A stretch of 32,906 nucleotides of DNA from a virus (Duplodnaviria; Caudoviricetes). The notes under the pieces are model-generated. The model was not told where the DNA came from and made no database searches. It saw nothing but the letters and a program-made list of their open reading frames with translations. The position numbers and the translations under genes are program-made. Within the stretch, counting starts at the first letter, position 1; each line of letters begins with the position of its first letter. This document shows, piece by piece, positions 4,000-18,237 of the stretch. Location of the stretch: positions 1-32,906 of IMG/VR virus record IMGVR_UViG_3300047669_002090. One strand, written 5' to 3'.

Positions 4000-4032
4000 T
4001 TGGCATGGAAAATGCTGCACCCCCCGTGCCAA
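4000..4032. repeat. 33-bp dyad copy 1 (double sigma54-like site)
   Basis: TTGGCATGGAAAATGCTGCACCCCCCGTGCCAA. Confidence 0.9.
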
Positions 4033-4096
4033 AAATTAAAGATAACTTTATTCATTTTACCCTTGACTTTACCTGAAAAATCTATTTAATTAAGGT

Positions 4097-4507
4097 ATGA
4101 AAAGTAGAAAACCGCACGACCCACGTTACGCTCTCGACACGAACCGCAAGGTATTCATTTACAAAAACCTGCACAAAAATTGCTGGTCTATTAAACAGGA
4201 CGGATTGGTGAAGGCTCATTCGGATAAAGACCCGATTGATTTATACCAAGCAACTATGTATGTCAACAGCAAGGGCAGACAGAGAGTTTTAAGAGAAAAG
4301 AGAAAAAATGTTCATGCAGGAATCAAGGGGTATCTTTCCCATCCTGATCCATCCTTTGAATGTTGGGATGACATAGGATGGTGGGAAATGGCTCCCATTA
4401 CCTATAACCCCTATAAGTATAAATCTTTTGTAGATAAACGAACGGAAAAACCAAGATGGTTCGCCTCATTCGTAAAACTGTATCCAAACGAAGCAAGAGC
4501 AATATAA
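4097..4507 (+). CDS. conserved phage hypothetical protein
   Basis: Motifs VFIYKNLHKNCWSI, RQRVLREKRKNVHA and YNPYK recalled from phage hypotheticals. Leaderless behind promoter 4063. Confidence 0.8.
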   Translation: MKSRKPHDPRYALDTNRKVFIYKNLHKNCWSIKQDGLVKAHSDKDPIDLYQATMYVNSKGRQRVLREKRKNVHAGIKGYLSHPDPSFECWDDIGWWEMAPITYNPYKYKSFVDKRTEKPRWFASFVKLYPNEARAI

Positions 4508-4546
4508 TCGACAAGTTCCAAAAAGGAACATACCACAAAAATAAAA

Positions 4547-4774
4547 ATGTTTGACGAACAAGAACGTATGAACGAAATGTGGGATGACTATTTCGCAAAA
4601 GGAGACGCCATTCGTGAGCGTTACGCAAGCGACATAGCCAGCATGGAGGGCGCAGATGAAGAGCGTGGTGAATATATGCAGGTAGTTTATGATGCAGGTT
4701 ATGGAGATGATGACCGAGCATATGAAGCAAATTGGAAAAGAACTAAAGAACACGCAGAACTCAACCTTAATTGA
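4547..4774 (+). CDS. acidic hypothetical protein
   Basis: ATG after an A-rich leader, D/E-rich. Confidence 0.65.
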   Translation: MFDEQERMNEMWDDYFAKGDAIRERYASDIASMEGADEERGEYMQVVYDAGYGDDDRAYEANWKRTKEHAELNLN

Positions 4775-4781
4775 TAAAAAA

Positions 4782-5057
4782 ATGGATATACCTAACTACG
4801 ACTACTTACAACTGCATCAAGATGAATACGGATTTACTGTTAAGGGGTATCTTAATGATGGTTACTCAAAGCATTCCGTTTGTGCTGGGATGACAAGGAT
4901 TGATTACCTTGACACCTTTGACGCGGAAGAGGATGCTCTTTCTGCCTTCCCTTCTTTGAAAGGAGAGGATGGAGAGATTTCTTATGGACATAAACTCTTT
5001 GATGACGAACTCAAGGATGTTTCCCACATTCCAGACACACCTGACCTATATATGTAA
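4782..5057 (+). CDS. acidic hypothetical protein
   Basis: ATG 4782 avoids overlap with the upstream gene. Confidence 0.65.
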   Translation: MDIPNYDYLQLHQDEYGFTVKGYLNDGYSKHSVCAGMTRIDYLDTFDAEEDALSAFPSLKGEDGEISYGHKLFDDELKDVSHIPDTPDLYM

Positions 5058-5058
5058 A

Positions 5059-5211
5059 ATGAATTACAGCGAACTATTTTTTGAAAAAAACAACGGCAAT
5101 GACATGGATTTCTTTGTGGATCTAATCTCTCGCTTCCAGCAACAGGGCGTAGACTTTGAGATAGAAGATAGCCCACACACAGGGTGCATAAGGCTTATGA
5201 TTAAAAAGTAA
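5059..5211 (+). CDS. hypothetical protein (50 aa)
   Basis: ATG 5059 directly after the previous stop. Its stop abuts tRNA-Cys. Confidence 0.55.
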   Translation: MNYSELFFEKNNGNDMDFFVDLISRFQQQGVDFEIEDSPHTGCIRLMIKK

Positions 5212-5285
5212 GTACCGATGGCCGAGCGGCTAGGCGAGGGTCTGCAAAACCCTTTACGTGGGTTCGAATCCCACTCGGTACTCCA
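5212..5285 (+). tRNA. tRNA-Cys (GCA)
   Basis: Acceptor GTACCGA/TCGGTAC, anticodon loop CT-GCA-AA, TTCGAAT T-loop, U73 discriminator, encoded CCA. Confidence 0.95.
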
Positions 5286-5287
5286 TT

Positions 5288-5309
5288 TTGGCACGGCTAT
5301 CCGTGCCAA
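5288..5309. repeat. shortened (22-bp) dyad
   Basis: TTGGCACGG-CTAT-CCGTGCCAA, outer arms only. Confidence 0.85.
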
Positions 5310-5315
5310 TTTATG

Positions 5316-5348
5316 TTGGCACGCAACGTGCAGCACGGCCCGTGCCAA
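5316..5348. repeat. 33-bp dyad copy 2
   Basis: TTGGCACGCAACGTGCAGCACGGCCCGTGCCAA. Confidence 0.9.
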
Positions 5349-5423
5349 TCTGTCCATAAAAAAAATTATGTTTTTTGTGCGATTACCCTTGACTTAATCG
5401 TAAAAAATGTCATACTTAATGTT

Positions 5424-5537
5424 ATGAAAGTTAAGGTAAGAAAGACAGGAATATTCAGTAAGGCTCGCCCTCACCAGCGGGTCAACAAAGTCCTGCCTCG
5501 GAAACAAAAGCACAAGAAAAAGCTTGACCTTTCCTAA
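5424..5537 (+). CDS. small basic protein (37 aa), RKxKH motif reminiscent of ArfA
   Basis: MKVKVRKTGIFSKARPHQRVNKVLPRKQKHKKKLDLS, leaderless behind promoter 5389. Confidence 0.6.
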   Translation: MKVKVRKTGIFSKARPHQRVNKVLPRKQKHKKKLDLS

Positions 5538-5587
5538 AAAATCTATTTAATTAAACATAACAATTAACCTCAAAAAGCTACAAAATT

Positions 5588-6343
5588 ATGAAACAACTCA
5601 ACTTATCCATCTGCGGTTCTGATCGCACAAAAGCATCCTTTGAAGAAGTTCTGGCAGTCCAGACTCCTCAAAAGACCGAAACTTGGACTCCTGTCAGTCA
5701 TGGATTCCTTATTGACCAAACCAAGAAAAAGCTCGATGAAAATGGTTTCGACGTTGTCGATGAAAACCACAACCTCGCTCGCTTTGGTCAGCGTTACTTT
5801 GGTCTGATGCAAGTGCAAGACCGCTCGGCTCCCGAAAATCCAGATCGGGCAACTGTCGTTGGTCTTCGCAATGGTCACGACAAGTGCTTTCCTGCTGGCA
5901 TTATGGCTGGTGACGCACCTTTTGTTTGCTCTAATCTTATTTTTAACAATGAGATTGTGATCGCTCGCCGACACACCAAGAACATCGACAACCTAGATGT
6001 GGCTGGCAATATCTTTCAGAAGATTGCTAATGCCATTGGCAAATTGCGTGAGTCTTGGGTTGGTCAAGAAAAACGTGTCAACTCCTACAAGGAATATGAC
6101 CTTTCCTCAACCTCGGAGGCTAATGACCTTATTATCCGTGCGTTCCAAAATGGTTCTTGCTCCAAAACTCAAATTGCTGATATTGTCGGGCAATGGAACA
6201 AACCAAACCATAACGAGTTTTCAGATCGGAATCTGTACTCTCTTTACAATTCATTCAGCGAGGTCTGGAAGGGTAATCTCGGATTGCTTCCTAATCGCTC
6301 AACTCAACTGCACGCCCTATTCGATTCGGTTGCGGAGGCTTAA
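5588..6343 (+). CDS. DUF932-family protein
   Basis: GLRNGHDK..PAG...FVCSNL and RRHTKN motifs, C-terminal LYSLYNSFSE. Confidence 0.8.
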   Translation: MKQLNLSICGSDRTKASFEEVLAVQTPQKTETWTPVSHGFLIDQTKKKLDENGFDVVDENHNLARFGQRYFGLMQVQDRSAPENPDRATVVGLRNGHDKCFPAGIMAGDAPFVCSNLIFNNEIVIARRHTKNIDNLDVAGNIFQKIANAIGKLRESWVGQEKRVNSYKEYDLSSTSEANDLIIRAFQNGSCSKTQIADIVGQWNKPNHNEFSDRNLYSLYNSFSEVWKGNLGLLPNRSTQLHALFDSVAEA

Positions 6344-6390
6344 TCCTTCCAACCATTAACCTAAAACAAAAATCATTAATTATAATTATT

Positions 6391-6630
6391 ATGAATAACA
6401 CCGCACAAAACATCAATCAAGTAGTAACAGGCGCACAAGGGAAATTTGTTTCCCTTCTAGTCTCCAAGGGTCTTCAGCGTAAGGCTCATTCGGGAAAGGT
6501 GGCGAAGGTCACCCCAACTCACGTTTATTTCACCGACACCAACAATGGTCGTCCTAATAGGCGGGTCGCTCGGACGAGCATTCTGCGTACCGCTTGTGGC
6601 AAGGCGGTATTCGCCCGCTCTGTACTTTAA
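6391..6630 (+). CDS. small basic hypothetical protein
   Basis: ORF with AT-rich leader, followed by a hairpin and a dyad. Confidence 0.7.
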   Translation: MNNTAQNINQVVTGAQGKFVSLLVSKGLQRKAHSGKVAKVTPTHVYFTDTNNGRPNRRVARTSILRTACGKAVFARSVL

Positions 6631-6645
6631 TTAAAAGTGCATACA

Positions 6646-6676
6646 TCCCTTGGGTCGCGGTGGACGGCCCGAGGGA
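6646..6676 (+). terminator. GC-rich stem-loop immediately before dyad copy 3
   Basis: TCCCTTGGGTCG-cggtgga-CGGCCCGAGGGA, weak U-tract. Confidence 0.5.
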
Positions 6677-6677
6677 A

Positions 6678-6710
6678 TTGGCACGCCGCGTGCTGCACGG
6701 CCCATGCCAA
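6678..6710. repeat. 33-bp dyad copy 3
   Basis: TTGGCACGCCGCGTGCTGCACGGCCCATGCCAA. Confidence 0.9.
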
Positions 6711-6774
6711 AAGTTTTCTCTAATTCTATGCATTTTTTGCTTGCGTTTTCCTAAAAAATCTATTTAATTAAGGT

Positions 6775-7371
6775 ATGAAAATTAATCCTCAAGAAATCAC
6801 CGATTACAATCGCACCGATGCAGAACTGGAATTCTTTCTTTTGTTCTGTATCGTAGTTGCTGGGAAGAAGTCCGACATTCAAGCACGCAAGTTAGAGGAA
6901 TGGTACGATAACCGAGTCTACCATAAGGATACTCCTTTTGAGTATATCGAAAGATTAGATGCAGATGGAGAGTTGCGTTCATCATTGGAGAAGGTAAGGA
7001 TGGGGCAGTATAATCGCCTTGTCAATTCTTTTCAAGATGTCATTGGCATGGGAGGCAGAGGGATACTGAACTTACAGAAGTGTTCGCTTCAAGACCTTTG
7101 TTTCATTCGTGGAGTAAAGTTAAAGACATCAAATTTCTTCTTGACTCATTCAAGGGAAGACTATAATGTACCTGTATTAGATACTCACGTTCTTAAATTC
7201 TTAAAAGCCGAAGGAATTAAAAACGTACCAAAGTCAACTCCCCAAGATGAAAAGCTTTACAATTCTCTTGCTAAACAATTCACAACCATTGCCAAACGCA
7301 GAAGGATGTCAGTTGCTGACCTCGACCTTCAAGTCTGGAAACAATACTCAACATCAACCATAAAAGCATAA
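6775..7371 (+). CDS. HhH-GPD superfamily DNA glycosylase/AP lyase, Ogg2-like
   Basis: HhH IRGVKLKTSNFFL (catalytic K), VLDTHVL (catalytic D), C-terminal DLDLQVW. Confidence 0.75.
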   Translation: MKINPQEITDYNRTDAELEFFLLFCIVVAGKKSDIQARKLEEWYDNRVYHKDTPFEYIERLDADGELRSSLEKVRMGQYNRLVNSFQDVIGMGGRGILNLQKCSLQDLCFIRGVKLKTSNFFLTHSREDYNVPVLDTHVLKFLKAEGIKNVPKSTPQDEKLYNSLAKQFTTIAKRRRMSVADLDLQVWKQYSTSTIKA

Positions 7372-7605
7372 ATGACCGAAACCATACCACATCCAGTAAT
7401 GGAACCAAAACTCTATGAGCTTAAGATGGCATCTCAAGTTTATGACCCGCAGTACAATGTAGATTGGTGCGACAAAGTAGATGCATGGATTACAACATTC
7501 GTGGATCACTATAACAAGGACGATACATTAGAGTATATGTTTAACTCTAAAGAAAAACTAGAAGAAATTCTTCTTGAATTAATGGAGGCACAAGAAAATG
7601 GATAA
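7372..7605 (+). CDS. hypothetical protein
   Basis: Abuts the upstream stop. Confidence 0.65.
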   Translation: MTETIPHPVMEPKLYELKMASQVYDPQYNVDWCDKVDAWITTFVDHYNKDDTLEYMFNSKEKLEEILLELMEAQENG

Positions 7606-7798
7606 ATTGAGTAATGGAGACCTAAAGGTTATTCTGGATATACTTAACGTCTATGATCCTAATGACATCAAACACGTTTACTCGGCAATGGGTTCGCAGG
7701 AATTCTTGGTTGAAGTAAATGAGACATTCCAAAAGGTATTATCTTTTGTAAAGAAAGGTGTTGACCTCATTGAAAAACCTGTCATACTAGAAGAATGA
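7598..7798 (+). CDS. hypothetical protein
   Basis: Coupled ORF with GGAGG upstream. Its 3' end embeds promoter 7761. Confidence 0.65.
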   Translation: MDKLSNGDLKVILDILNVYDPNDIKHVYSAMGSQEFLVEVNETFQKVLSFVKKGVDLIEKPVILEE

Positions 7799-8016
7799 AA
7801 GATATAAAACAATTAGTTGGAATCGAATCGACAGCAGTCGCAGACCTCATTCAAAATCATCAAGACATTCTACAAGAAGATGAGAAGATTGTTGAAGACA
7901 TCACAAACGCTCGATTGAGCTTGCAGTTCTTCATGTCAATAGAAGAGGATAATCGTGCTTATTATGAAGCAAAGAACATTAAACATAAAATCATGCAACA
8001 CTTGGGATTAGTATAA
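7795..8016 (+). CDS. hypothetical protein
   Basis: Leaderless behind promoter 7761. Confidence 0.7.
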   Translation: MKDIKQLVGIESTAVADLIQNHQDILQEDEKIVEDITNARLSLQFFMSIEEDNRAYYEAKNIKHKIMQHLGLV

Positions 8017-8225
8017 TGAATGAAACAATAGTATTAGACACACCGCAAGCAATCGATGGGTTTCGCACTCGTATGTTGAGGAGTGCCCTCAAGCTGGAAG
8101 TTTTGGGTATGAGTCGCAAGGGGCAATCGGTATACTCGATTGTCAAGCAGGAGTTTGGATTTAAGGGAAACAAGCAACAGGTTCTCGACCAACTACTTGC
8201 TTACATAAAAGAGCATAACATATAA
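8016..8225 (+). CDS. conserved phage hypothetical protein
   Basis: TAATG coupling. ALKLEVLGM...KQEFGFKG pattern recalled from phage hypotheticals. Confidence 0.7.
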   Translation: MNETIVLDTPQAIDGFRTRMLRSALKLEVLGMSRKGQSVYSIVKQEFGFKGNKQQVLDQLLAYIKEHNI

Positions 8226-8232
8226 TCATTTT

Positions 8233-8318
8233 GCCGAAGTGGTGGAATGGTAGACACTACGGACTTAAAATCCGTTGCCTGAAAAGGCGTGAGGGTTCGA
8301 CTCCCTCCTTCGGCACCA
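8233..8318 (+). tRNA. tRNA-Leu (TAA)
   Basis: Acceptor GCCGAAG/CTTCGGC, anticodon arm ACGGA-CTTAAAA-TCCGT, long variable arm, A73, CCA. Confidence 0.95.
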
Positions 8319-8320
8319 AT

Positions 8321-8353
8321 TTGGCACGGGCCGTGCTGCCCGCCCCGTGCCAG
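8321..8353. repeat. 33-bp dyad copy 4
   Basis: TTGGCACGGGCCGTGCTGCCCGCCCCGTGCCAG. Confidence 0.9.
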
Positions 8354-8419
8354 AAGTCAAGCGCAAAAAAGATTATTTTTTCTGTTGACATTGGCTCCGA
8401 TTATGTCATGATTATATGT

Positions 8420-9214
8420 ATGAAAACTGAAAAAACCATTCCAAACCTATTGTCCACACCTTCGAAAATGCCTTGCTTTAGCTTTAACATTCCTGCGTTG
8501 AAGTTTTGTCCTGCGGCTAAAATTGTAATGAACCTGGCCAAGAAAGCAAAAGAGGCAATGGACAAAATTATTTGCTCAAGTTGCTATGCTTGCAAAGGTT
8601 TTTACATGATGCCAAACGTGGCGGAGGCTTTACAGAACAAAGGGAATTTCATCACCAAGTCCATTCGAGAAAACGGCGGGGATTCTTTTGTGAAAGAAAT
8701 GGTTGGACAAATTACAAGGAAGTATTACAAGGCAAGCGGTGAAAAGAAAAGCCTTAAGAATTGCAACACGGATCTTTTTCGTGTTCACGATGCGGGCGAC
8801 CTATTTTCTGCCAAGTACATTAACTGCTGGATTCGAATTTGTGAGGCATTGCCTGATATTAGATTTTGGTTTCCTACTCGTGAATATGTGAGGCCCGACC
8901 AAATGCCACACTTGCAACAATTGGCTTTATTGCCGAACACTTCCGTAAAACCTTCTGCTTTGCGATTGGATGAACCTGCTCCACAAATTAAAGGAATTGA
9001 TGCGGGGACGGCAGTATATACTTCTGAGGAAAAAGCTTTAGAAGACAACCATTACATTTGCCCCGCCACAATCCACGCTTTCCGCATGGGCAGAAAAGAA
9101 TGGAGAAAGGTTGACAAGAAAGAACGGGCGACCCTTTCGTCTTGTGCTGGCAATGGTTGCAAACTATGCTTTATAAAAGGATGCAAAAAAGGTATTGCAT
9201 ACATGGCCCATTAG
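8420..9214 (+). CDS. GP88-like Cys-rich phage protein (radical-SAM-like Fe-S motif)
   Basis: FCPAA..ICSSCYACKG.Y, FRVHDAGDLFS..YINCW, FWFPTRE, C-terminal CxxxxCxxC. True start 8420 (leaderless); the longer ORF runs through tRNA-Leu. Confidence 0.75.
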   Translation: MKTEKTIPNLLSTPSKMPCFSFNIPALKFCPAAKIVMNLAKKAKEAMDKIICSSCYACKGFYMMPNVAEALQNKGNFITKSIRENGGDSFVKEMVGQITRKYYKASGEKKSLKNCNTDLFRVHDAGDLFSAKYINCWIRICEALPDIRFWFPTREYVRPDQMPHLQQLALLPNTSVKPSALRLDEPAPQIKGIDAGTAVYTSEEKALEDNHYICPATIHAFRMGRKEWRKVDKKERATLSSCAGNGCKLCFIKGCKKGIAYMAH

Positions 9215-9306
9215 TGCTATACTATAAACAATAAACGTTAACATATAGAAAAAATGAATGATACTGACTATTATTATGAGCTTAATTGTAATGTATATTA
9301 TATTAG

Positions 9307-9468
9307 ATGATTAACTACAAGTACTATGTAGAAGTTATTAGAAACTACGAAGAGCTCCTGGATACGGGTTACAGTGAATTCGAGGCGGCCTATCTATTGG
9401 CAACAGTGTTGCCTGCGGAGACGACAGTACTTATAAGACAGGGTTATTTTCAGGTTCTTAATAATTAG
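9307..9468 (+). CDS. hypothetical protein (53 aa)
   Basis: MINYKYYVEVIRNYEELLDTGYSEFEAAYLL..., below the ORF-track cutoff. Confidence 0.5.
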   Translation: MINYKYYVEVIRNYEELLDTGYSEFEAAYLLATVLPAETTVLIRQGYFQVLNN

Positions 9469-9536
9469 CCAAATAGGCTAAATATGGCGCCGCATGCCAC
9501 CTCCCCATACCCCTCAGGGTACGGTATGGCTGAGAG

Positions 9537-9569
9537 TTGGCACGGCGCGTGCTGCTCGTCCCGTGCCAG
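9537..9569. repeat. 33-bp dyad copy 5
   Basis: TTGGCACGGCGCGTGCTGCTCGTCCCGTGCCAG, followed by the same AAGTCAAGCGCAAAAAAGATTATTTTT as copy 4. Confidence 0.9.
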
Positions 9570-9668
9570 AAGTCAAGCGCAAAAAAGATTATTTTTCTCA
9601 AGAAAAGCCTTGACTTGCGCCCCCTATAGTCTATTATTGGTTATAGTTAATTGAAAGACTTTTATTGT

Positions 9669-9780
9669 GGCCCTGTAGTTTATATCAGGTTTAAAACGCT
9701 CTCGTCCCGATCCTAGGTAAAAGGGAAGCGGACTGATCATTTGTGAGAGAGAACAGGGGGTTCGAATCCCCTCAGGGCCT
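9669..9780 (+). ncRNA. tRNA-like RNA with ~41-43-nt insert in place of the anticodon loop
   Basis: Acceptor GGCCCTG/CAGGGCC, D arm GTTT..AAAC, CTCTC/GAGAG stem, T arm GGGGG-TTCGAAT-CCCCT, no encoded CCA. Confidence 0.75.
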
Positions 9781-9781
9781 G

Positions 9782-9856
9782 CTTTTTCTGTAGATCGAAA
9801 GATTGAACAACGAGGCGTCAGGACACGCCTACAACCCGAAGGGGAGAGAGAAAAAG
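9782..9856 (+). ncRNA. putative multibranch structured RNA
   Basis: Closing helix CTTTTTCT/AGAAAAAG enclosing GATC-GAAA-GATT, AGGCGT..ACGCCT and CCC-GAA-GGG hairpins. Confidence 0.45.
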
Positions 9857-9879
9857 GTACAACACACAATTTCACTTTG

Positions 9880-9975
9880 CTAGGTCAGCATGGAGCATGG
9901 AACGTGGGAGGTGCATCTCCCAAGGCGTTGGATGTCCCGTTCGCTGAGTACTCGGAGAACCTCCACCTGACCTAG
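9880..9975 (+). ncRNA. putative structured RNA
   Basis: Closing helix CTAGGTCAG/CTGACCTAG, inner TGGAG/CTCCA, GGGAG..CTCCC hairpin, AACG/CGTT. Confidence 0.5.
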
Positions 9976-10031
9976 TATTAATTTCGCAAAAAAGCATTGA
10001 CAAAAACCCAAAAACCTACATAATTAAAGTT

Positions 10032-10265
10032 ATGAAAAAAATCATAAAAAGAATCATCAACTTCTTCCGTAAGCCATTTACGCTTACTTATCAAAAGCTC
10101 AACGGAGACATTGAGACGTATAAGTTGCGGAACTTCAATTACTACAATTACTTTGGGAACAAGCGAGAGAACTGGGAAAATGTAGGCATTCGAGCTTATT
10201 GCTACGAACGCAAAGGTATTCGCTCATTTCGTTACGAAGGTATCATCTCTATTACAAACACATGA
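10032..10265 (+). CDS. hypothetical protein, possible WYL/Sm-like small domain
   Basis: LTYQKLNG...AYCYERKGIRSFRYEGI resembles the WYL AxC..R...RxFR motif. Leaderless. Confidence 0.6.
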   Translation: MKKIIKRIINFFRKPFTLTYQKLNGDIETYKLRNFNYYNYFGNKRENWENVGIRAYCYERKGIRSFRYEGIISITNT

Positions 10266-10609
10266 AAAAGTTTATATTATTAGCCCTATTGATTGCTACG
10301 CCTCTCGCGGGCCAACGTGATCGCCATGTCCAAGAAGAATGGAACACCGATGCTGTAAACTTAGAGCAGAATGTATTTTCTGCAACGGATGCGTGGCACG
10401 TATCACCTTGGCTTGGTGGGTATTACCAAACAGGAGATTGGTGGATTTACCATTGTAACAAGGGGTGGATGTACCCAGAGTCCGATGGATCGGGTGGGGT
10501 CTGGCTTTATTGGCCAATAGAAAACGGCTGGATCTGGACAAACCGAGATGTTTATCCGTTAGCTTGGAATACAGAAACCCAACAATGGTTTAATTCTTGC
10601 GAACTCTAG
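10262..10609 (+). CDS. secreted Trp-rich protein
   Basis: Signal peptide MKKFILLALLIA, then SPWLG.YY...WIYH...GW.Y...VW.Y...GWIWT..VYP. Confidence 0.75.
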   Translation: MKKFILLALLIATPLAGQRDRHVQEEWNTDAVNLEQNVFSATDAWHVSPWLGGYYQTGDWWIYHCNKGWMYPESDGSGGVWLYWPIENGWIWTNRDVYPLAWNTETQQWFNSCEL

Positions 10610-11570: not shown

Positions 11571-11638
11571 TGATACCAATTGTAGTATTAGGGCTTTGTT
11601 TAATTGTGCTTATTGGAATATTAACAGGACAGATATGA
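11567..11638 (+). CDS. micro membrane peptide (23 aa)
   Basis: MMIPIVVLGLCLIVLIGILTGQI, ATGA-coupled at both ends. Confidence 0.55.
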   Translation: MMIPIVVLGLCLIVLIGILTGQI

Positions 11639-11859
11639 AATTCACTTACCCACGAGAACTCTCATTTGCACATCCAGATTATCAAGGGGGCTGTGCAGAA
11701 ACAGAAACCCCTTTCATTGGGGCGAACGGCAAGACATTCCTTTATGTTTGGCACAAGGTTAAAAAGATTCATTTTTATTATTGTTTTGAAGAAGACCTAT
11801 TTTGGTCAGAGAAAGATTATGAACTTGTAGAAGAAATGAGAAAATACCCCGTTGACTAA
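11635..11859 (+). CDS. hypothetical phage protein
   Basis: ETPF...GKTFLYVW...H.YY pattern, ATG 11635. Confidence 0.65.
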   Translation: MKFTYPRELSFAHPDYQGGCAETETPFIGANGKTFLYVWHKVKKIHFYYCFEEDLFWSEKDYELVEEMRKYPVD

Positions 11860-11894
11860 GGATAAATTAACAACAACACTAAAGAAAGAAAAAA

Positions 11895-11981
11895 ATGAGT
11901 CTTATTATCGCAATATTAGCATCAATCGCATCAGTCATTATTTTGGTTGGATCAAGTGTATGGTTAGGTAAGATAAACTAA
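11895..11981 (+). CDS. micro membrane peptide (28 aa)
   Basis: MSLIIAILASIASVIILVGSSVWLGKIN. Confidence 0.45.
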   Translation: MSLIIAILASIASVIILVGSSVWLGKIN

Positions 11982-12209
11982 TTATGCATACAATAGATAC
12001 AATAGAAACAGATTCCGCCATTAAGGACATGAATATGTCAAGGATTCAATTGATTGATTACCTTCTTGACCTTATGGTGCATGGGGATGCCGAAGAAAGA
12101 AAAGAAGCGCAAGAAAAATTATATGTCCTCTGCCCAAATAGGGGTTAAATAGGGAAGCTCCAAATATTACCCCTAAGGGGCAACCTGCGGGGATTTGGCA
12201 ATCTCCAGA

Positions 12210-12242
12210 TTGGCACGGAACGTGCAGCCCGCGCCGTGCCAA
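12210..12242. repeat. 33-bp dyad copy 7
   Basis: TTGGCACGGAACGTGCAGCCCGCGCCGTGCCAA. Confidence 0.9.
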
Positions 12243-12377
12243 CTTAATTTGTAGGCATTTTGCATACATCCTATAGCGGGCGAAAAAACTCTATCTTTTT
12301 TGCGATTAAGGGTTGACTTCACTAAATTTTCTGTCATACTATTATTAGAATTAAGATTAACCTATAGTTAAAAAACC

Positions 12378-12704
12378 ATGTCCGATCCAACCAAAACTTA
12401 CATCACCGACCCAAACATTATCGCCCGTCACGCATTTGATGCGGGCTTTGAGGGTCTTGACTCCCTCGGCAAGCCTATAGGCAATCGGGACGGGGCTTGC
12501 ATGAATCCCTCCATCTACGCTGACGTAGGCGACAACTGGCGGATCTGGGCCGACCAGTATCAGGCTGGAGAGCGTGACGCTCGGTCTGACGCTCAGGATT
12601 TTCTGGCGGATGCTCAGTCTCCCGATGCTACTGGCCAAAACCAGTGGAGGCAGGACGAGGCCGTGGATCTCGATTATGGTTATCATTCGTTCCACGATAT
12701 GTAA
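12378..12704 (+). CDS. acidic hypothetical protein
   Basis: Sole gene between dyads 7 and 8, AAAAAACC-ATG leader. Confidence 0.7.
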   Translation: MSDPTKTYITDPNIIARHAFDAGFEGLDSLGKPIGNRDGACMNPSIYADVGDNWRIWADQYQAGERDARSDAQDFLADAQSPDATGQNQWRQDEAVDLDYGYHSFHDM

Positions 12705-12756
12705 TCATTTTGCATAAAAAGCCCATCACCCCGCTCTGCTACCATGCCATGTGAGA

Positions 12757-12789
12757 TTGGCACGGGGCGGGCTGCACGCCCCGTGCCAA
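12757..12789. repeat. 33-bp dyad copy 8 (inverted relative to 6, 7, 9-12)
   Basis: TTGGCACGGGGCGGGCTGCACGCCCCGTGCCAA. Confidence 0.9.
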
Positions 12790-12921
12790 GTGCATTTGTA
12801 TGCATTTTGCATATATCTTAAGGCAGGCAAAAAAACTTTATCTTTTTTCAATTATTGCTTGACTTCATGTAAAATTCTGTCATACTAAAAGGTACAAAAT
12901 TAAACGAACCACAAAAAAATT

Positions 12922-13185
12922 ATGACACAAGAAAACGAATACAACGGCTGGAGCAATCACGCAACCTGGAACGTCGCCCTTCATATTGGCAACGATGAGG
13001 GAATTTATAATTTCGCAAAGTATTTTTCAAACTATCTCGATTTTGTCGCTGGCATGAAGGAAGTCAACGAAACTACCAGTCTGGCTTTCGAGACTCCTGA
13101 CGGAGTAAGCTGGACAGACTCGGCTCTCGACCATGACGAGCTTAACGAGGTTTTTTCTGACATGGAAGACGAAAATTCTCTATGA
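12922..13185 (+). CDS. conserved phage protein (YNGWxNxxTWxVxL type)
   Basis: YNGWSNHATWNVALHIGNDEG...TPDGVSW, recalled from phage early proteins. Confidence 0.75.
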   Translation: MTQENEYNGWSNHATWNVALHIGNDEGIYNFAKYFSNYLDFVAGMKEVNETTSLAFETPDGVSWTDSALDHDELNEVFSDMEDENSL

Positions 13186-13265
13186 AAGACCAAGCTTGGA
13201 AACCTTACTCGGAAGAATTAAAATTCTACTTGACAAAAACCTAAAATTACTACATTATTATTACC

Positions 13266-13595
13266 ATGAAATCATTCAAAGACTTAGAATTTAAACCTCA
13301 CGCCAACAACCCTAAAAGCGTTCAAGCTAGTTGCAAGCTTGGCAACAGCATCTCAATTTCTGTCGTAGCTGGCGAAGGTCTTTACGGAAGCGTTGAGTCT
13401 GGCCTTTATGAAGTTGGAGCGTTTCAAGGCAAGGAGTGGATTCCGCTTTCTTGCGCTGATGATGTTATTGGCTGGCAAAGTCCAGAACAGATCAGCTATT
13501 TAATGGCAAAGCTCCAAGCGGATGATGTCCAAGAGTGGATCAAGCAAAAGATTGGACAAAAACTTGATTGGCAAGAAGAGCTTGATACTGCATAA
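13266..13595 (+). CDS. conserved phage hypothetical protein
   Basis: ISVV.G.GLYG....GLYEV...DDVIGW pattern, leaderless. Confidence 0.75.
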   Translation: MKSFKDLEFKPHANNPKSVQASCKLGNSISISVVAGEGLYGSVESGLYEVGAFQGKEWIPLSCADDVIGWQSPEQISYLMAKLQADDVQEWIKQKIGQKLDWQEELDTA

Positions 13596-13632
13596 GTATT
13601 AAAAAGTATTAACTTTTGTATATGCATGGTGT

Positions 13633-13674
13633 GCCCTGTCGAGGTTGGTGGTTCTCCTCGGCAGGGCTTTTTTT
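13633..13674 (+). terminator. rho-independent terminator fused to dyad copy 9
   Basis: GCCCTGTCGAGG-ttggtggttct-CCTCGGCAGGGC-TTTTTTT. Confidence 0.8.
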
Positions 13675-13705
13675 GGCACGGGACGTGCAGCCCGCCCCGT
13701 GCCAA
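13673..13705. repeat. 33-bp dyad copy 9
   Basis: TTGGCACGGGACGTGCAGCCCGCCCCGTGCCAA. Confidence 0.9.
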
Positions 13706-13830
13706 TTGGCTCTATCACTGGGCTGACGGCCGACAAGTGCATACAAGTGCATACAAACACTAGCTTAAATTATTTTACTTTTTTTGCGATTAACCCTTGA
13801 CTTTACGTAAAATGTTGTCATACTAAGGTT

Positions 13831-13986
13831 ATGAAAAGTTGGAAAAGAAAAGTAGTTTGGTTGTCCTTGCCTGAGCCTCGGCTGGACTGGGAAACCTTCA
13901 AAAGAGTTTGCAGTCACTTGAGCGTAGAAGACGCAAAGGAGCGGGCAACTGTAGTTATGGAAAGAATCCAAAAGAAAAAATCATGA
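13831..13986 (+). CDS. hypothetical protein (51 aa)
   Basis: Leaderless behind promoter 13797. Confidence 0.6.
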   Translation: MKSWKRKVVWLSLPEPRLDWETFKRVCSHLSVEDAKERATVVMERIQKKKS

Positions 13987-14078
13987 AAGATCAAAATTTT
14001 AACAACTGGAAGAAACGCCTTAAAGCCTACATACTTAAAGACATAGAAAATCGTAAAACACATAGAAAATTATAAAAC

Positions 14079-14252
14079 ATGACAAAAGAAACACTAGCAA
14101 TGATCCTCGCCGACAATTTTGAAAAAGCAAAGTATGGAGATGCCTTTGCGGTTTCTGCCATCCTTGGGGCGCAAGAAGAATTAAAAAAGATTAAAGAGCT
14201 TGAAAGCTTAATCGCACAAGGAAATCCGTTACCATCAAACCCATTAGTATAG
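14079..14252 (+). CDS. hypothetical protein (57 aa)
   Basis: MTKETLAMILADNFEKAKYGDAF..., below the ORF cutoff. Confidence 0.55.
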   Translation: MTKETLAMILADNFEKAKYGDAFAVSAILGAQEELKKIKELESLIAQGNPLPSNPLV

Positions 14253-14295
14253 AAAAAAGAGTTGACAAAAAGCCAGAACCTGTCAAACTAGAAGC

Positions 14296-14490
14296 ATGAT
14301 AAGATTAAAAGTTATAAAACCACTTCGTATAAATGAACACCTTCTTAAAGTGGGAGATGAATTTGAAGTTGCCGAGGTCAAAGAGGATCTCATGACCAAG
14401 GCGACCTTTTTTCGTCCTGCAAATGTTAAGGGAATGCCCAAAGGCACTTTTTGGCTGTTCACCAATAAAACCTTTAAAGTTATAGCATAA
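14296..14490 (+). CDS. hypothetical protein
   Basis: Leaderless behind promoter 14262. Confidence 0.7.
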   Translation: MIRLKVIKPLRINEHLLKVGDEFEVAEVKEDLMTKATFFRPANVKGMPKGTFWLFTNKTFKVIA

Positions 14491-14684
14491 TGATTAAAAT
14501 TGAAAGACACGTAAACCTAAACAACTGGATTAATGTTAGCATCTACAACAAGCTCGTGGATCAATTTAGCTCTCGCATCGAGGCGGTTCGTTTCGCTAAA
14601 AGGATTGCCAAAGAGCGAAGGATGAAAGTGCTAGACCTAGACGATAACGAAAAAAGCCATAAGGATCTTCTAAATGATAGTTGA
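14490..14684 (+). CDS. hypothetical protein
   Basis: TAATG coupling. Confidence 0.65.
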   Translation: MIKIERHVNLNNWINVSIYNKLVDQFSSRIEAVRFAKRIAKERRMKVLDLDDNEKSHKDLLNDS

Positions 14685-14739
14685 GCTTGTGTTGATTTTT
14701 ATTATGGCGACTATTGTCTTTGCTTATATTACCCGATAG
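14674..14739 (+). CDS. micro membrane peptide (21 aa)
   Basis: MIVELVLIFIMATIVFAYITR. Confidence 0.4.
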   Translation: MIVELVLIFIMATIVFAYITR

Positions 14740-14781
14740 GGTAGGGCGAGGCAGGAGCCACTCACAGACATACGTTCAGGA

Positions 14782-14814
14782 TTGGCACGGGACGTGCAGC
14801 CCGCGCCGTGCCAA
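14782..14814. repeat. 33-bp dyad copy 10
   Basis: TTGGCACGGGACGTGCAGCCCGCGCCGTGCCAA. Confidence 0.9.
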
Positions 14815-14939
14815 CTTAATGTGTATGCATTTTGCATACATTTGTATGTCACAAAAAAACTTTCACAAAACACTTGACTTTATACAATTTTCTGTCAGAC
14901 TATAAGAATAGTTTAATTAAAACCACAAAATCAAAAATC

Positions 14940-15248
14940 ATGGGATCTCAACCAGTACTTTTCAATCGTCAAAATTTATCTGCCTCAGAAATGCGCGAAG
15001 TAAATTCGTTGCATCGCCAGCACCAAGCCTTGCTTGCGCAACCTCGGTTTGCTTTGTTGCTCCAGAGCAACAGCAACCCCAAGCACTCCTTTAGGGCTTC
15101 AGCCTGGGGGCAGAATGCTCAAGAGGCAGTTAACTCTTTTTTTGGGGAAGGCGCAGAAGGCGAGCATTCCCGCAGATGCGTTCGAGTTGTTTCCGTTCAC
15201 TCATGCGAGCATCCGCATCAAGCCAACGAAAGCAACAGGGTCAATTAA
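14940..15248 (+). CDS. hypothetical protein
   Basis: First ATG after promoter 14874. Confidence 0.65.
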   Translation: MGSQPVLFNRQNLSASEMREVNSLHRQHQALLAQPRFALLLQSNSNPKHSFRASAWGQNAQEAVNSFFGEGAEGEHSRRCVRVVSVHSCEHPHQANESNRVN

Positions 15249-15307
15249 AAAAACCCTTGACTTTACAGAAAATTCTGTCATACTAAAATCATAGAAAATT
15301 AAAAACC

Positions 15308-15478
15308 ATGCAAAAACAAATCATCATCGGCAACCTTACAAAGTTAATCGGCAAAGCAAATGCCCCAAGCGATTTTGCCATCGCAACCACAATGGTGCGT
15401 TTTGCGGATCTTGACAATTCAAACAAGATAAAACTGCATACATTTTTAGCACAAAAAAAGATTCAAAAAGGTCATTGA
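15308..15478 (+). CDS. hypothetical protein (56 aa)
   Basis: AAAAACC-ATG leader after promoter 15257. Confidence 0.55.
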   Translation: MQKQIIIGNLTKLIGKANAPSDFAIATTMVRFADLDNSNKIKLHTFLAQKKIQKGH

Positions 15479-15541
15479 CAAAAGCCTTTTATTATGAGAT
15501 AATTCTTTAAACTTAAGATTAACCACACAAAAAAAACCATT

Positions 15542-15739
15542 ATGACAATCGCAGCACTCGCCCACCAAGATTCAACCGAACGCGCTTTAACTGTTCACGG
15601 CTTCGGTGCTTGGCTCGATTCCCAGCAACCCACACCTGAGGAGCAGGACAGGATCCTGACGGACATGGAGGAACAAGATTTACAGCGCAAGGCCGATCTC
15701 CATTGGGATCTATGCCTTGAGGATCTGCTCTCGCACTAG
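15542..15739 (+). CDS. hypothetical protein
   Basis: AAAAACCATT-ATG leader. Confidence 0.7.
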   Translation: MTIAALAHQDSTERALTVHGFGAWLDSQQPTPEEQDRILTDMEEQDLQRKADLHWDLCLEDLLSH

Positions 15740-15777
15740 GCCAAGCAACTTTTTATTAACCACCAATATTAATTATT

Positions 15778-16014
15778 ATGCATATGTTCAAAGCCACTCA
15801 CTTCATCATCACCCCTAAGGCTGGGAGTTCCGCCTACGGGTTCGGCTTCTCCAAGTCACCTAAGCAAGCCGTCGAGCTTGCCAAGGCTAACGCTTGGGAC
15901 GGCCTCGCCCGCTGGGATCATTACAATGGCCAATGCTCCTCAGTTGGTGGGGAATGCACCCATTTGCTGGACGCTCGCAATGAGCGAGTCCTGCACCAAG
16001 ACCTAGACCTCTAG
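15778..16014 (+). CDS. hypothetical protein
   Basis: Stop lies 2 nt before dyad copy 11. Confidence 0.65.
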   Translation: MHMFKATHFIITPKAGSSAYGFGFSKSPKQAVELAKANAWDGLARWDHYNGQCSSVGGECTHLLDARNERVLHQDLDL

Positions 16015-16016
16015 GA

Positions 16017-16049
16017 TTGGCACGGGACGTGCAGCCCGCGCCGTGCCAA
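16017..16049. repeat. 33-bp dyad copy 11
   Basis: TTGGCACGGGACGTGCAGCCCGCGCCGTGCCAA (identical to copy 10). Confidence 0.9.
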
Positions 16050-16142
16050 CTTGATTTGTAGGTATTTTGCATACATTTGTTCACCGCAAAAAAACTTTGA
16101 CAAAACACTTGACTTTATAAAAAATTCTGTCATACTAGAGTC

Positions 16143-16331
16143 ATGATTAAATTAAAAACCACATTAAAGCAGGGCGACATTGTTACCGCCAGCACAGGAG
16201 AAATTTACGAAATCGAGGAGATTGTCATTCACCCAACTTGGGGCGAAGTTGCCAACTGCCGTTTGTATCGCTCACAAGTTAGGCATGGCATCCGTTGCAA
16301 AGGATTAAAAAAACATCCATTTTTTTCCTAA
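16143..16331 (+). CDS. hypothetical protein (small beta-barrel-like)
   Basis: Leaderless behind promoter 16109. Confidence 0.7.
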   Translation: MIKLKTTLKQGDIVTASTGEIYEIEEIVIHPTWGEVANCRLYRSQVRHGIRCKGLKKHPFFS

Positions 16332-16403
16332 AAGCCTTGACATTACAGGGAATTCTGTCAGACTATTAAAAGATTAAGATTAAAACCACAAAACAAAAAC
16401 CAT

Positions 16404-16628
16404 ATGAAAAAATTCATCACAAAAAAGTCCAAGATTCAAACCCTTATTAATGCAATTAACCTTGAGGTTAAATGCCCAAACCTTCCGTTACCCTTCCACA
16501 ATGAAAGCCACAAGAAGGTTGCTCACGATGCGATTTCCTCCGTTGTGTTTGAGGTTGAACAATTCCTCAAAGAATTTGGTAGCGAAGATCTTGCCAAGGG
16601 TTTTGCCTCTAAGTGCTTAAAAAGGTAA
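16404..16628 (+). CDS. hypothetical protein
   Basis: AAAAACCAT-ATG leader after promoter 16337. Confidence 0.7.
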   Translation: MKKFITKKSKIQTLINAINLEVKCPNLPLPFHNESHKKVAHDAISSVVFEVEQFLKEFGSEDLAKGFASKCLKR

Positions 16629-16632
16629 GGTC

Positions 16633-16755
16633 ATGTCAGACATCACTTCAAACCCTCTTTATTGGTTATCCTACAATTTAGTCGAGATCACCATTGCCAT
16701 GACGGCATTGACCTTTATTGGATTGACCATTATTGCATTAACCGAAAAACATTAA
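16633..16755 (+). CDS. micro membrane peptide (40 aa)
   Basis: MSDITSNPLYWLSYNLVEITIAMTALTFIGLTIIALTEKH, fills the gap. Confidence 0.5.
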   Translation: MSDITSNPLYWLSYNLVEITIAMTALTFIGLTIIALTEKH

Positions 16756-16760
16756 AAACC

Positions 16761-16931
16761 ATGACAAAGAAACATTTTGAACTTATCGCTCAAACCCTTA
16801 ACAAGGCGCACCAGCACGACCACAACAAAAACGTGGTTGAAGCTATCGCCTTTGATCTATCAGTAAAATTTCAGGATCTCAATCCAAACTTTGACCAAGC
16901 ACGATTTGTCGAAGCTGTTACAAAAGATTAA
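16761..16931 (+). CDS. conserved phage protein (MTKKHFELIA...NPNFD.ARF.EA type)
   Basis: Motif recalled from phage early proteins, AAAAACC-ATG leader. Confidence 0.75.
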   Translation: MTKKHFELIAQTLNKAHQHDHNKNVVEAIAFDLSVKFQDLNPNFDQARFVEAVTKD

Positions 16932-16953
16932 CTTTGATTACAATGACATGGTA

Positions 16954-16997
16954 GCCCGTCGGGGTTGGTGGTTCTCCTCGGCGGGCAATTCTTTTTT
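16954..16997 (+). terminator. terminator hairpin homologous to 13633
   Basis: GCCCGTCGGGG-ttggtggttct-CCTCGGCGGGC-AATTCTTTTTT. Confidence 0.7.
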
Positions 16998-17028
16998 GGC
17001 ACGGGACGTGCAGGCCGCGCCGTGCCAT
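16996..17028. repeat. 33-bp dyad copy 12
   Basis: TTGGCACGGGACGTGCAGGCCGCGCCGTGCCAT (minus-strand half degenerate). Confidence 0.85.
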
Positions 17029-17147
17029 TTGGCTCTATCACTGGGCTGGCGGCCGATGCCTTTATGCATATAAATGCATACAAGTAGTATTTATTCCGAA
17101 TTAAATTCAATTAAATGATTTCTCGCTGATTTTCCCGCAACTTAAAC

Positions 17148-17272
17148 AGCTTTAAGCGATTTTTTATGAGATTATTTTGCTGTTTGGCTCTATGACTAGC
17201 CTCAGAGCTGAAGATTGTCGTTGTATTTTTCACAAATTCGTTTATAATGGTAACATACAAAATTAAGAAAGA
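17148..17272 (+). repeat. ~125-bp intergenic repeat, copy A
   Basis: AGCTTTAAGCG...TTATTTTGCTGTTTGGCTCTAT...CTCAG.GCTGA...TTTATAATG...AAAATTAAGAAAGA shared with 18300-18425. Confidence 0.8.
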
Positions 17273-17283
17273 TAAAAACCATT

Positions 17284-17466
17284 ATGACAAAACAAGAACT
17301 TATTAACGCAACAAAAACGCAAGAAATTGCTCGCCTTGAAAAGCAGATCCAAGAATGGACTGCCAAGCTTAACCGCTCACGCAAAAACTCATTGATTGCC
17401 ATGCGTGCAATGCATAGGAATATGCTCGTTGCCAAGCTTAACAGGCTACAGCGAGAAAACGCTTGA
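17284..17466 (+). CDS. basic hypothetical protein
   Basis: AAAAACCATT-ATG leader. Confidence 0.65.
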   Translation: MTKQELINATKTQEIARLEKQIQEWTAKLNRSRKNSLIAMRAMHRNMLVAKLNRLQRENA

Positions 17467-17510
17467 CTTTAAACATTATTCTGTCAAACTATATAAAGAA
17501 TCAAAAAACC

Positions 17511-17774
17511 ATGTATCAAGTAACATTAGAAATCATCCAAGCAACACCATCAACCTGGCTGGAAGTTGGACACCGCAAGTCAATCAAAACTAAGGAAGCT
17601 TTGAAGGTTGGGGACGAGTGGACAGACTTTGGTCACATTGCCAAAGTTATTGATGTTCAAGAAATCGAGGAAACTCCTTGGACTGATGAACAAGAAAAGG
17701 CTTTACAGAAACACCAGCACGAAGAGATTAACAAATCCTTTGACCGCATCACAAAAAACATATTAAACAATTAA
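17511..17774 (+). CDS. hypothetical protein
   Basis: ATG 17511. The track's TTG at 17463 is the -35 box. Confidence 0.7.
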   Translation: MYQVTLEIIQATPSTWLEVGHRKSIKTKEALKVGDEWTDFGHIAKVIDVQEIEETPWTDEQEKALQKHQHEEINKSFDRITKNILNN

Positions 17775-17862
17775 GAAAGAAAATGATTACAATCGGAGAA
17801 AAGTACCAAGTTATTAAAGACAAGAAAAACAACAATTACGTTTTAGTATTCAAAAAAGTAAA

Positions 17863-18075
17863 ATGAAAGATTTGACAGAAGCCCCTTTTGTTCTCACCTC
17901 ATTAAACCAGCACAACATTATTTTACGCAAGGATAATCCATTTTATAAAGATACTGGTCGAGATTTACCAATGAGCATTGACTGCGTTCTGGCCAATCAA
18001 GACAGGCTTGAAGAAGTCACCGACCAGTTAGAGTTGCCAAGCGACCAAGCGGTTTGGGTATTGCATGACGAATAA
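17863..18075 (+). CDS. hypothetical protein
   Basis: ORF track, consistent strand. Confidence 0.6.
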   Translation: MKDLTEAPFVLTSLNQHNIILRKDNPFYKDTGRDLPMSIDCVLANQDRLEEVTDQLELPSDQAVWVLHDE

Positions 18076-18087
18076 TTTATATTAAAA

Positions 18088-18171
18088 ATGATTACAATTA
18101 TTATATGTGCAGGGTTTGCGATTGGGTCGGTTGGTCTTTGCTTCTTGTGCCTGTCGGCCGTCGAGCGCTAG
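18088..18171 (+). CDS. micro membrane peptide (27 aa)
   Basis: MITIIICAGFAIGSVGLCFLCLSAVER. Leader TTATATTAAAAATGATTA is shared with 18714. Confidence 0.5.
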   Translation: MITIIICAGFAIGSVGLCFLCLSAVER

Positions 18172-18204
18172 CCCGCTCTATGACTGGGCTGGGAGCCGAT
18201 GGTT

Positions 18205-18237
18205 TTGGCACGCGGCGGGCTGCCTGCGCCGTGCCAG
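18205..18237. repeat. 33-bp dyad copy 13
   Basis: TTGGCACGCGGCGGGCTGCCTGCGCCGTGCCAG. Confidence 0.9.

Follow-up and report, generated by a model that had tools for sequence, protein, structure and literature searches.

Head-to-head sigma54-type half-sites in the early region of an uncultured tailed phage, and a possible silent role of host sigma54

What binds a 33-bp dyad that is repeated thirteen times in the early DNA of a phage, and what would the bound protein do there? The question is raised by a 32.9-kb piece of an uncultured tailed phage (Duplodnaviria; Caudoviricetes; IMG/VR record IMGVR_UViG_3300047669_002090, positions 1 to 32,906, the whole of which is called the window), with genes for a terminase, PhoH, an ERCC4 nuclease and a sigma70-family factor among others; at least half of its sampled words were present in 19 of the 21 listed seawater metagenome runs. 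The dyads follow the pattern TTGGCAYG-N6-GCWGC-N6-CRTGCCAA, and their halves resemble the -24/-12 promoter sequence of sigma54 (RpoN). Judged by sequence comparison, the dyad is a real, conserved and phage-specific cis-element of sigma54-type half-sites, its parts known and its function possibly new.

The dyad array and its conservation

All thirteen dyad starts given by an earlier, sequence-only reading of the window were borne out, and no dyad was found to the right of 18237 (the right-hand 14.6 kb is empty); 300 shuffles of the window gave 1 arm pair, any spacing allowed. The copies, with the sigma70-like promoter that follows and its spacing (dyad start to -35 start), are:

Dyad 1: 4000..4032; -12 element ATGC in the sense half, GTGC in the antisense half; promoter 4063-4090, 63 bp
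Dyad 2: 5316..5348; promoter 5389-5416, 73 bp
Dyad 3: 6678..6710; variant promoter 6741-6768, 63 bp
Dyad 4: 8321..8353; abuts tRNA-Leu (8233-8318); promoter 8385-8412, 64 bp
Dyad 5: 9537..9569; promoter 9610-9637, 73 bp
Dyad 6: 10612..10644; promoter 10685-10712, 73 bp
Dyad 7: 12210..12242; promoter 12313-12340, 103 bp
Dyad 8: 12757..12789; better half on the minus strand; promoter 12859-12886, 102 bp
Dyad 9: 13673..13705; promoter 13797-13824, 124 bp
Dyad 10: 14782..14814; promoter 14874-14901, 92 bp
Dyad 11: 16017..16049; promoter 16109-16136, 92 bp
Dyad 12: 16996..17028; antisense half broken (GGCC); no sigma70-like promoter within 130 bp
Dyad 13: 18205..18237; neither half has TGC; no sigma70-like promoter within 130 bp

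Of the 26 window halves, 25 have GG at -25/-24 followed, after 10 bases, by GC at -13/-12, as had been read, the single failure being the minus-strand half of copy 12 (16996). Other parts of that reading had to be corrected: the paired sites were called back-to-back and in fact face each other, head-to-head, with the central W shared as the -11 base of both; the right-hand end CRTGCCAA describes most copies, 4 of 13 finishing in CCAG or CCAT instead of CCAA; and an intergenic position, claimed for all, was found for copies 1-12, copy 13 overlapping short unannotated open reading frames (ORFs) that were taken as spurious. An extra (14th) arm pair lacks the GC motif:

5288..5309: short arm pair, 22 bp, without GG-N10-GC; abuts tRNA-Cys (5212-5285); hairpin fold, then T-rich bases; possibly a dyad-derived terminator

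That the dyad is a double-stranded protein site of RpoN-type geometry rather than an RNA hairpin, as had been favoured, is supported by the fixed GC positions and the lack of inner covariation. Hairpin covariation was rejected, pairing of the inner bases never rising above that with shuffled partners: window, 42/78 (45.3 shuffled); 69 family dyads, 184/414 (187.5); textbook pairs, i.e., those with TGC in both halves, 233/670 (242). Between 7 orthologous dyad pairs, differences were found at 14% of inner positions, 4% of flanks and 0 of 28 GC positions. The opposite case, in which the dyad would be a stem-loop of PeSL type, serving termination or RNA processing, or else a site at which recombination shuffles early gene cassettes, is very improbable and already largely refuted: the 8-bp arms do fold (z -1.4 to -3.2), dyads stand in repeated promoter cassettes as PeSLs do, and some contigs diverge exactly at the end of dyad 9, whereas covariation is missing, the GC positions are fixed though unpaired, and the window dyads have no U run behind them, while distinct hairpin-U terminators precede two copies:

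13636..13672, + strand: terminator-like hairpin and U run, ending just before dyad 9; z -3.1
16955..16995, + strand: terminator-like hairpin and U run, ending just before dyad 12; z -3.6

Joints between repeats are seen in population contigs and may be assembly effects; they lie mostly at promoters or leaders, not at dyads. An Rfam search of the window gave two tRNAs only and no RNA family at the dyads. The T4-like PeSL cassettes (PMC2839356, PMC4122927) are alike in their repeated intergenic strong sigma70-like promoter, AT-rich upstream tract, GC-rich palindrome and small variable genes, and both kinds of cassette may be shuffling substrates; the PeSL palindrome differs in being a working terminator stem-loop of variable position, whereas the dyad keeps its length and its unpaired bases, shows no covariation and has RpoN spacing.

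The element was followed through uncultured relatives. The strict pattern was found at 110 loci on 26 IMG/VR contigs. In a set not chosen by its centre (PhoH-selected loci, G001, G004, G007 and the window), 62 of 63 arm pairs are 33 bp long, and GCWGC is present in 58 of the 62 family dyads. G001, a near-complete distant relative (162 kb, 96%), has all its 7 dyads at 6.3-15.1 kb and elsewhere only 2 lone halves. Among 80 PhoH-related loci, only the 12 best-ranked besides the self-match were close enough for 33-bp dyads to show, and 11 of these 12 carry them; most of the remaining loci do not extend to an early region.

An arms-only search at any distance (7 of 64 IMG/VR parts) gave 117 distinct pairs; in the pairs that are not 33 bp long, GC stands at GG-N10-GC in 53 of 156 halves (6-18 at 12 other offsets), and both halves show it in 21 of these 78 pairs (30-44 bp long; Fisher p 1.6e-9). 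A scan of 16 of the 64 parts for textbook pairs recovered 134 distinct ones, and about 490 stretches are estimated for IMG/VR as a whole; the centre gap is 3-12 (mode 4-5), and 188 of 268 halves have T at -15, a position left unconstrained in the search pattern. A constant 16-bp half with a variable centre fits independent RpoN-type sites better than one rigid dimer. Within the window clade, textbook halves were found in G013 and halves about 135 bp apart in G016. In bacteria the textbook pattern was found in 1 of 401 genomes (one phylum), the reversed control pattern likewise in 1; the strict dyad was found at 5 loci in GTDB, 3 of them on one phage-like contig binned in a metagenome-assembled genome and 2 isolated, near chance.

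Further arrangements were seen along the way. L290 (3300-5700) and L291 (1300-3500) have convergent sigma54-like halves about 135 bp apart upstream of early genes, enclosing paired IHF-like motifs and a GC-rich centre. L128/L129 and L143/L144, records of 11-12 kb with inverted terminal repeats, have sigma54-like pairs of 30-31 bp at each end, no more than about 100 bp from it. In L133, L136, L142, L151, L160, L182, L202, L216, L219 and L220 the element takes a form of 35-37 bp in which TGA replaces TGC at -12 on one or both halves. G001 (L245, L249-L252) encodes a DnaE-type polymerase, RecA, a tubulin/TubZ-like protein and three sigma70-family factors, and carries a block of more than 20 sugar-modifying enzymes.

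The binder and its host

Host sigma54 is the probable binder of the dyads. With bacterial RpoN -24/-12 promoters and silent sites (PMC4591121), the dyads share the TTGGCAYG arm, the exact GG-N10-GC and W at -11; they differ in that the phage sites are fused head-to-head (the textbook pair being as rare in bacteria as stated above), have G and not T at -15/-14 in this lineage and a GC-rich melting region, and are placed upstream of sigma70 promoters.

The weak -12 element, a caveat of the sequence-only reading, holds and is the main evidence against sigma54 as the binder. None of the 26 window halves has TTGC, and 15 of them have T at -14 (11 of 13 sense, 4 of 13 antisense). Over the 124 halves of the 62 family dyads, -14 is G in 75 and T in 38, and -15 is T in 2; at least one TGC half is present in only 33 of the 62 dyads, and the relative G004 has none in all its 15. 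The 1-bp centre gap of the 33-bp form is, moreover, absent among the 134 textbook pairs. Among the E. coli motifs obtained by chromatin immunoprecipitation, of which Tables 1-2 of PMC4591121 show 129 of 135, -14 is T in 122 and G in 0, a comparison of two columns counted by hand. On these sequences, the T that bound E. coli sites have at -14 (and mostly at -15) is largely missing from this lineage and present in the pairs of unrelated phages.

This loss of T at -14, a base critical for sigma54, while the length stayed fixed within the family (62 of 63 arm pairs at 33 bp, GCWGC in 58 of 62) speaks for another phage- or host-encoded protein as binder in this lineage, either a dimeric class I activator or a loop-forming regulator, the likeness to sigma54 being ancestral and drifted. 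Such a binder is nonetheless judged unlikely. In its favour, dyad centres lie near -62, -71, -81, -91 and -102 of sigma70 promoters, close to class I positions, and a gene for a 315-aa RuvB-like AAA+ protein with a winged-helix end (L239:1402-2349; G001 4723-5670) was found, also in L023, L052, L002, L341, L240-L243 and L349, about 1-8 kb from the dyads in several distant relatives. Against it, GC at the exact GG-N10 distance is retained (0 of 28 changes), the same-clade relatives G013 and G016 have textbook or widely spaced halves, and one match only, SprT-like, was found between the window early proteins and the cultured phage stretches examined. The AAA+ gene lacks a GAFTGA loop, lies far from the dyads in G013 and was not found in the window or in the closest relatives' DNA examined.

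A gene with the sigma54 DNA-binding domain Sigma54_DBD (PF04552) was found in none of 8 phage records at E<=1 (0/3 and 0/5; 3 records at least 90% complete), nor in a Pfam scan of 185 of the 190 called G001 ORFs. The 8 records likewise gave no gene for a bacterial enhancer-binding protein (bEBP); AAA+ matches in G001 and G013 were read as candidates and rejected, being RuvB-like and without GAFTGA. Since no phage gene with a sigma54 domain was found and almost no early proteins are shared, a shared host factor is likely, and sigma54 is favoured as that factor because its consensus fits. The earlier proposal of a host rather than a phage binder thus appears likely, as unrelated cultured phages share the element.

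In Otagovirus a 35-bp pair was found in 8 records, with one half broken in one of them; where termini are annotated, it lies at nt 107-141 of a 510-529-bp terminal repeat (in one, a 522-bp direct terminal repeat). TTGACA stands 27-28 bp from the pair centre in 5 of the 8 records, matching the shortest spacing of the window family, 28; in 3 of 8 no TTGACA follows the pair. In the Pakpunavirus vB_Pae_Kat the pair is 36 bp long, and TTGACA lies 28.5 bp from the pair centre; the region around the pair was found in 135 Pseudomonas phage records, the pair itself being checked in Kat and PaP1. In PaP1 all 8 matches fall within the last 13 kb, and the 1190-bp terminal redundancy contains 4; the T5-like Vibrio phage D419 has 5 of 5 in the pre-early region, and VpV262 has 6 of 6 at nt 173-346, beside the terminal repeat. 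The hosts of these phages have rpoN. The parallels came from weak BLAST matches (E 0.2-9) that were then read, and are examples and no census. Chi-like phages were dropped as parallels (YSD1, 0 pattern matches), as was SPLA5a (3 scattered matches only); BLAST with L153, L342 and L412 as queries gave nothing relevant.

No cluster was found in T5, SPO1, phiCbK, Felix O1, K, P-SSM2, S-PM2 or Bxz1 (0-3 scattered matches each), and the element is therefore not universal. The hosts of the first four carry rpoN, so that their lack of a cluster counts against the sigma54 reading; those of the last four are not known to carry it. As clusters are missing in both groups, the 8 genomes do not test the link to rpoN.

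Look-ups by terminase (best matches 22-28% identity), PhoH relatives and clusters indicated no organism as the host, whose rpoN is therefore presumed; this counts against the sigma54 reading. The window and four stretches of 20 kb from close relatives (L339, L340, L255, L260) do not contain a single CCGG, while GGCC (65), GCGC (71) and CGCG (35) are common and the distant G001 and G013 do not avoid CCGG; this suggests a host restriction system that cuts CCGG, a possible handle on the host. GCWGC was rejected as an avoided restriction site, 26 copies lying outside dyads.

Promoters, genome ends and the proposed function

The sequence-only reading overlooked both the adjacent sigma70 promoters and a likely terminal repeat. 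A sigma70-type promoter, typically TTGACT-16 nt-CATACT with extended TG, stands downstream of 11 of the 13 dyads at the spacings listed. In the family, a promoter matching the search pattern was found in 57 of 91 contexts, the other 34 being excluded from phasing; the spacings cluster at 44, 53, 62-66, 72-76, 84, 92-96, 102-104 and 123-124 bp, with a single value of 152 bp. A period of 9.9-10.2 bp fits these spacings best: R 0.76 on 43 collapsed values (a level reached by none of 2000 null sets); R 0.71 on 20 unique spacings (null P 0.0005); R 0.87 at 10 bp on 48 values from 8 partly redundant contig sets; in all of these the dyad copies are related and hence not independent draws. A-tracts between dyad and promoter are weakly phased (R 0.35, n=325). 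The phasing of about 10 bp links whatever binds the dyad to the sigma70 polymerase downstream. A tRNA gene precedes each of copies 2 and 4, and a terminator-like element each of copies 9 and 12; the dyad therefore reads as an operon head. The RNA run X20 held 0.06 of the sampled words, in sparse contigs that cannot show transcript starts.

A second palindrome is present in four copies, those with the longer spacings of 92-103 bp:

14822..14840: second palindrome, TGTATGCA-N3-TGCATACA, between dyad 10 and its promoter; near copy 12797-12815; partial copies 12250-12268 and 16057-16075

Its half-sites were also seen at 6638, 13738, 13748 and 17065-17075. IHF was rejected as a general partner (2 of 21 textbook pairs, 5 of 90 controls), IHF-like palindromes being found only in the clade relatives L290 and L291; a strict IHF motif lies within 60 bp in 1 of 95 family contexts.

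The second palindrome could be an activator site if the sense half were a real, activator-dependent sigma54 promoter, a backup for the sigma70 promoter of early operons in starved or stressed cells, with the antisense half giving antisense RNA or a competing switch. The half that points at the genes is indeed nearer the consensus (T at -14 in 20/40, 7/40 for the opposite half), a sigma54-like promoter is described for phage YuA (PMC10914365), and a phage AAA+ protein has been proposed to act on sigma54 polymerase (bioRxiv 10.64898/2026.10.06.757011). The transcript would, however, start in the opposite arm behind a GC-rich stretch; no bEBP gene was found in the 8 records, the AAA+ matches of G001 and G013 being RuvB-like; the strict IHF motif is as rare as stated; symmetric pairs are essentially absent from bacterial chromosomes; and the better half flips its orientation in some copies. 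We regard this possibility as unlikely, and the signal-dependent bidirectional promoters of the sequence-only reading are not well supported, given the GC-rich melting region and the lack of a bEBP gene in the 8 records.

Two other functions offered there, decoy sponge and roadblock, are weakly supported. A sponge needs no helical phasing, and E. coli is already estimated to have more than 250 sigma54 sites; repression by silent sigma54 was ruled out at intragenic E. coli sites (PMC4591121). For these reasons, and because the repression known for RpoN requires overlap with the promoter, which the phage dyads lack, we tentatively choose a reading in which host sigma54 docks silently on the dyads and helps the phased sigma70 early promoter. 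Host sigma54 RNA polymerase would dock on the dyad in either orientation as a silent closed complex, one complex at a time, and the GC-rich centre would keep it from opening. The docked complex would boost the sigma70 early promoter downstream in helical phase, either by contact with, or recruitment of, the sigma70 polymerase over bent A-tract DNA, or by shielding from silencing proteins; we infer the positive sign. The dyads would mark operon heads, after terminators or tRNAs and before 11 of the 21 sigma70-like promoters of the region, and would enter the cell first as part of a long terminal repeat, as the depth step below suggests. In order of probability, this silent help comes first, though itself short of probable, followed by DNA handling or titration, another binder, an activator-dependent promoter and, far behind, a stem-loop or recombination site.

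Several points weigh against silent help. We know of no case of a closed sigma54 holoenzyme activating a sigma70 promoter. Of the 21 sigma70-like promoters in 3.9-18.7 kb, 10 have no dyad within 130 bp, and 2 of the 13 dyads have no promoter within that distance; duplication of 10-bp A-tract units could partly produce the phasing; and the three Otagovirus records without TTGACA fall on the same side. The published effect of the sigma54 holoenzyme on a sigma70 promoter is repression by overlap (PMC8743547). The E. coli RpoN "repressive promoters" described there are alike in that an enhancer-free sigma54 holoenzyme acts on a neighbouring sigma70 promoter, as is proposed for the phage; they overlap and repress, whereas the phage dyad is a symmetric site in helical phase that stops 11-91 bp short of the -35. 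Silent holoenzyme binding is established for bacterial sigma54 sites (PMC4591121).

The depth of long near-identical contigs over 12.9-18.4 kb as compared with 19-32.9 kb was 11.9-15.1 and 6.8-8.9 in run X1, 17.6-25.6 and 10.5-12.2 in X2, and 12.1-16.5 and 7.6-8.3 in X3, a step of about 1.7-2.1x in 3 of 4 runs; X1 pieces stay at depth 11.7-19.1 across 4.6-18.4 kb. Run X4 shows no clean 2x step and covers the right part patchily, and all depth figures are per contig and give no copy number; both points count against a repeat. The simplest reading of the step is that the dyad region is likely a long direct terminal repeat, its right boundary at about 18-19 kb and its left at or left of 3800, in which case a virion would hold 26 dyads; the alternative is strains that have only the dyad region in common. 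The region and a gene to its right are:

3800..18900, + strand: early region with small, mostly unknown genes; putative long direct terminal repeat, contig depth about 2x in X1, X2 and X3
21747..22529, + strand: phage-encoded sigma70-family factor; region 2 match; not a sigma54 relative

An element of C-run, A/T-run and G-run at 18820-18900, the likely right boundary of the repeat, may be a genome end or a signal for packaging; L146 and L133/G013 have comparable G-run elements behind their dyads.

These ends bear on the next most probable reading, which is nevertheless not a likely one: sigma54 binds for DNA handling, i.e., draw-in, shielding from nucleases or marking of the concatemer junction for repeat formation or packaging, or else is titrated from host stress genes. 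In its support, sites lie in non-coding DNA at or near the known termini of cultured phages and close to the ends of the records of two complete uncultured genomes, G010 (42.6-43.1 of 43.6 kb) and G013 (0.4-3 of 211 kb); both orientations occur; many clusters have no nearby sigma70 promoter (2 of 21 textbook pairs have one within 150 bp); and the depth step covers the window dyad region. It leaves unexplained both the promoter phasing of about 10 bp and the presence of a single dyad at each operon head along 14 kb; in Pakpunavirus the pair lies some 12.7 kb inwards from the end, and contig ends are biased towards repeats. For titration, 13-26 weak dyads are few against the E. coli estimate.

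Other features of the early region were noted. Early promoters (4063-17463) have mostly a 16-nt spacer and extended TG, which may help to place the host; early leaders are A-rich, with no obvious Shine-Dalgarno sequence by eye. A tRNA-like element at 9670-9778, missed by ARAGORN and Rfam, has an acceptor stem, a D-arm, a GTTCGAATCC T-loop and about 45 extra bases in the anticodon arm; it is the first transcript behind dyad 5 and is identical in one relative. It is followed at 9878-9978 by a multibranch non-coding structure (z -3.3, 0 of 200 shuffles; no Rfam match at the gathering threshold). A further repeat family (GCTCTAT...CTGGGCTG) lies at 13709-13740, 17032-17063, 17187-17218, 18175-18206 and 18339-18370, and two copies of a 102-bp cassette, whose promoter-like form differs, at 17148-17249/18300-18401, near the right end of the early region.

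Known systems and meaning

The SPO1 host-takeover module (PMC3652863) and the T5 first-step-transfer DNA (note in the T5 record) are alike in their small early genes behind strong host-type promoters and in a long repeated end, which for the window is suggested by depth alone; they differ in having 1 and 2 scattered pattern matches, respectively, and no cluster. Pseudomonas phage YuA also has a sigma54-type sequence, in the form of a single active promoter, with no convergent pair or array (PMC10914365). A search of titles and abstracts in open PMC and bioRxiv gave no description of sigma54 sites arranged in pairs in the early or terminal DNA of phages.

Phages of at least four cultured genera, together with hundreds of uncultured contigs, retain the sites as pairs, an arrangement hardly ever seen in bacteria, in the DNA that is read first. 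It is a fair possibility, if one that we would put somewhat below even, that many unrelated tailed phages, therapy-relevant Pakpunaviruses included, have converged on head-to-head sigma54 docks in the DNA that enters first, the silent holoenzyme serving them as a structural co-factor, both as a phased sigma70 activator and as a genome-end mark. A sigma factor would then have a role without transcription from its own site, and the element bears on the open question of why bacteria conserve silent sigma54 sites. Clinical Pseudomonas often has an altered rpoN; should sigma54 act as a co-factor when early phage genes are transcribed or the DNA enters, the state of rpoN could alter phage efficacy. 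The element could also mark the host and the genome end of uncultured phages, and the cultured carriers PaP1 and PAK_P1, which grow on laboratory strains, make the idea testable by standard genetics.

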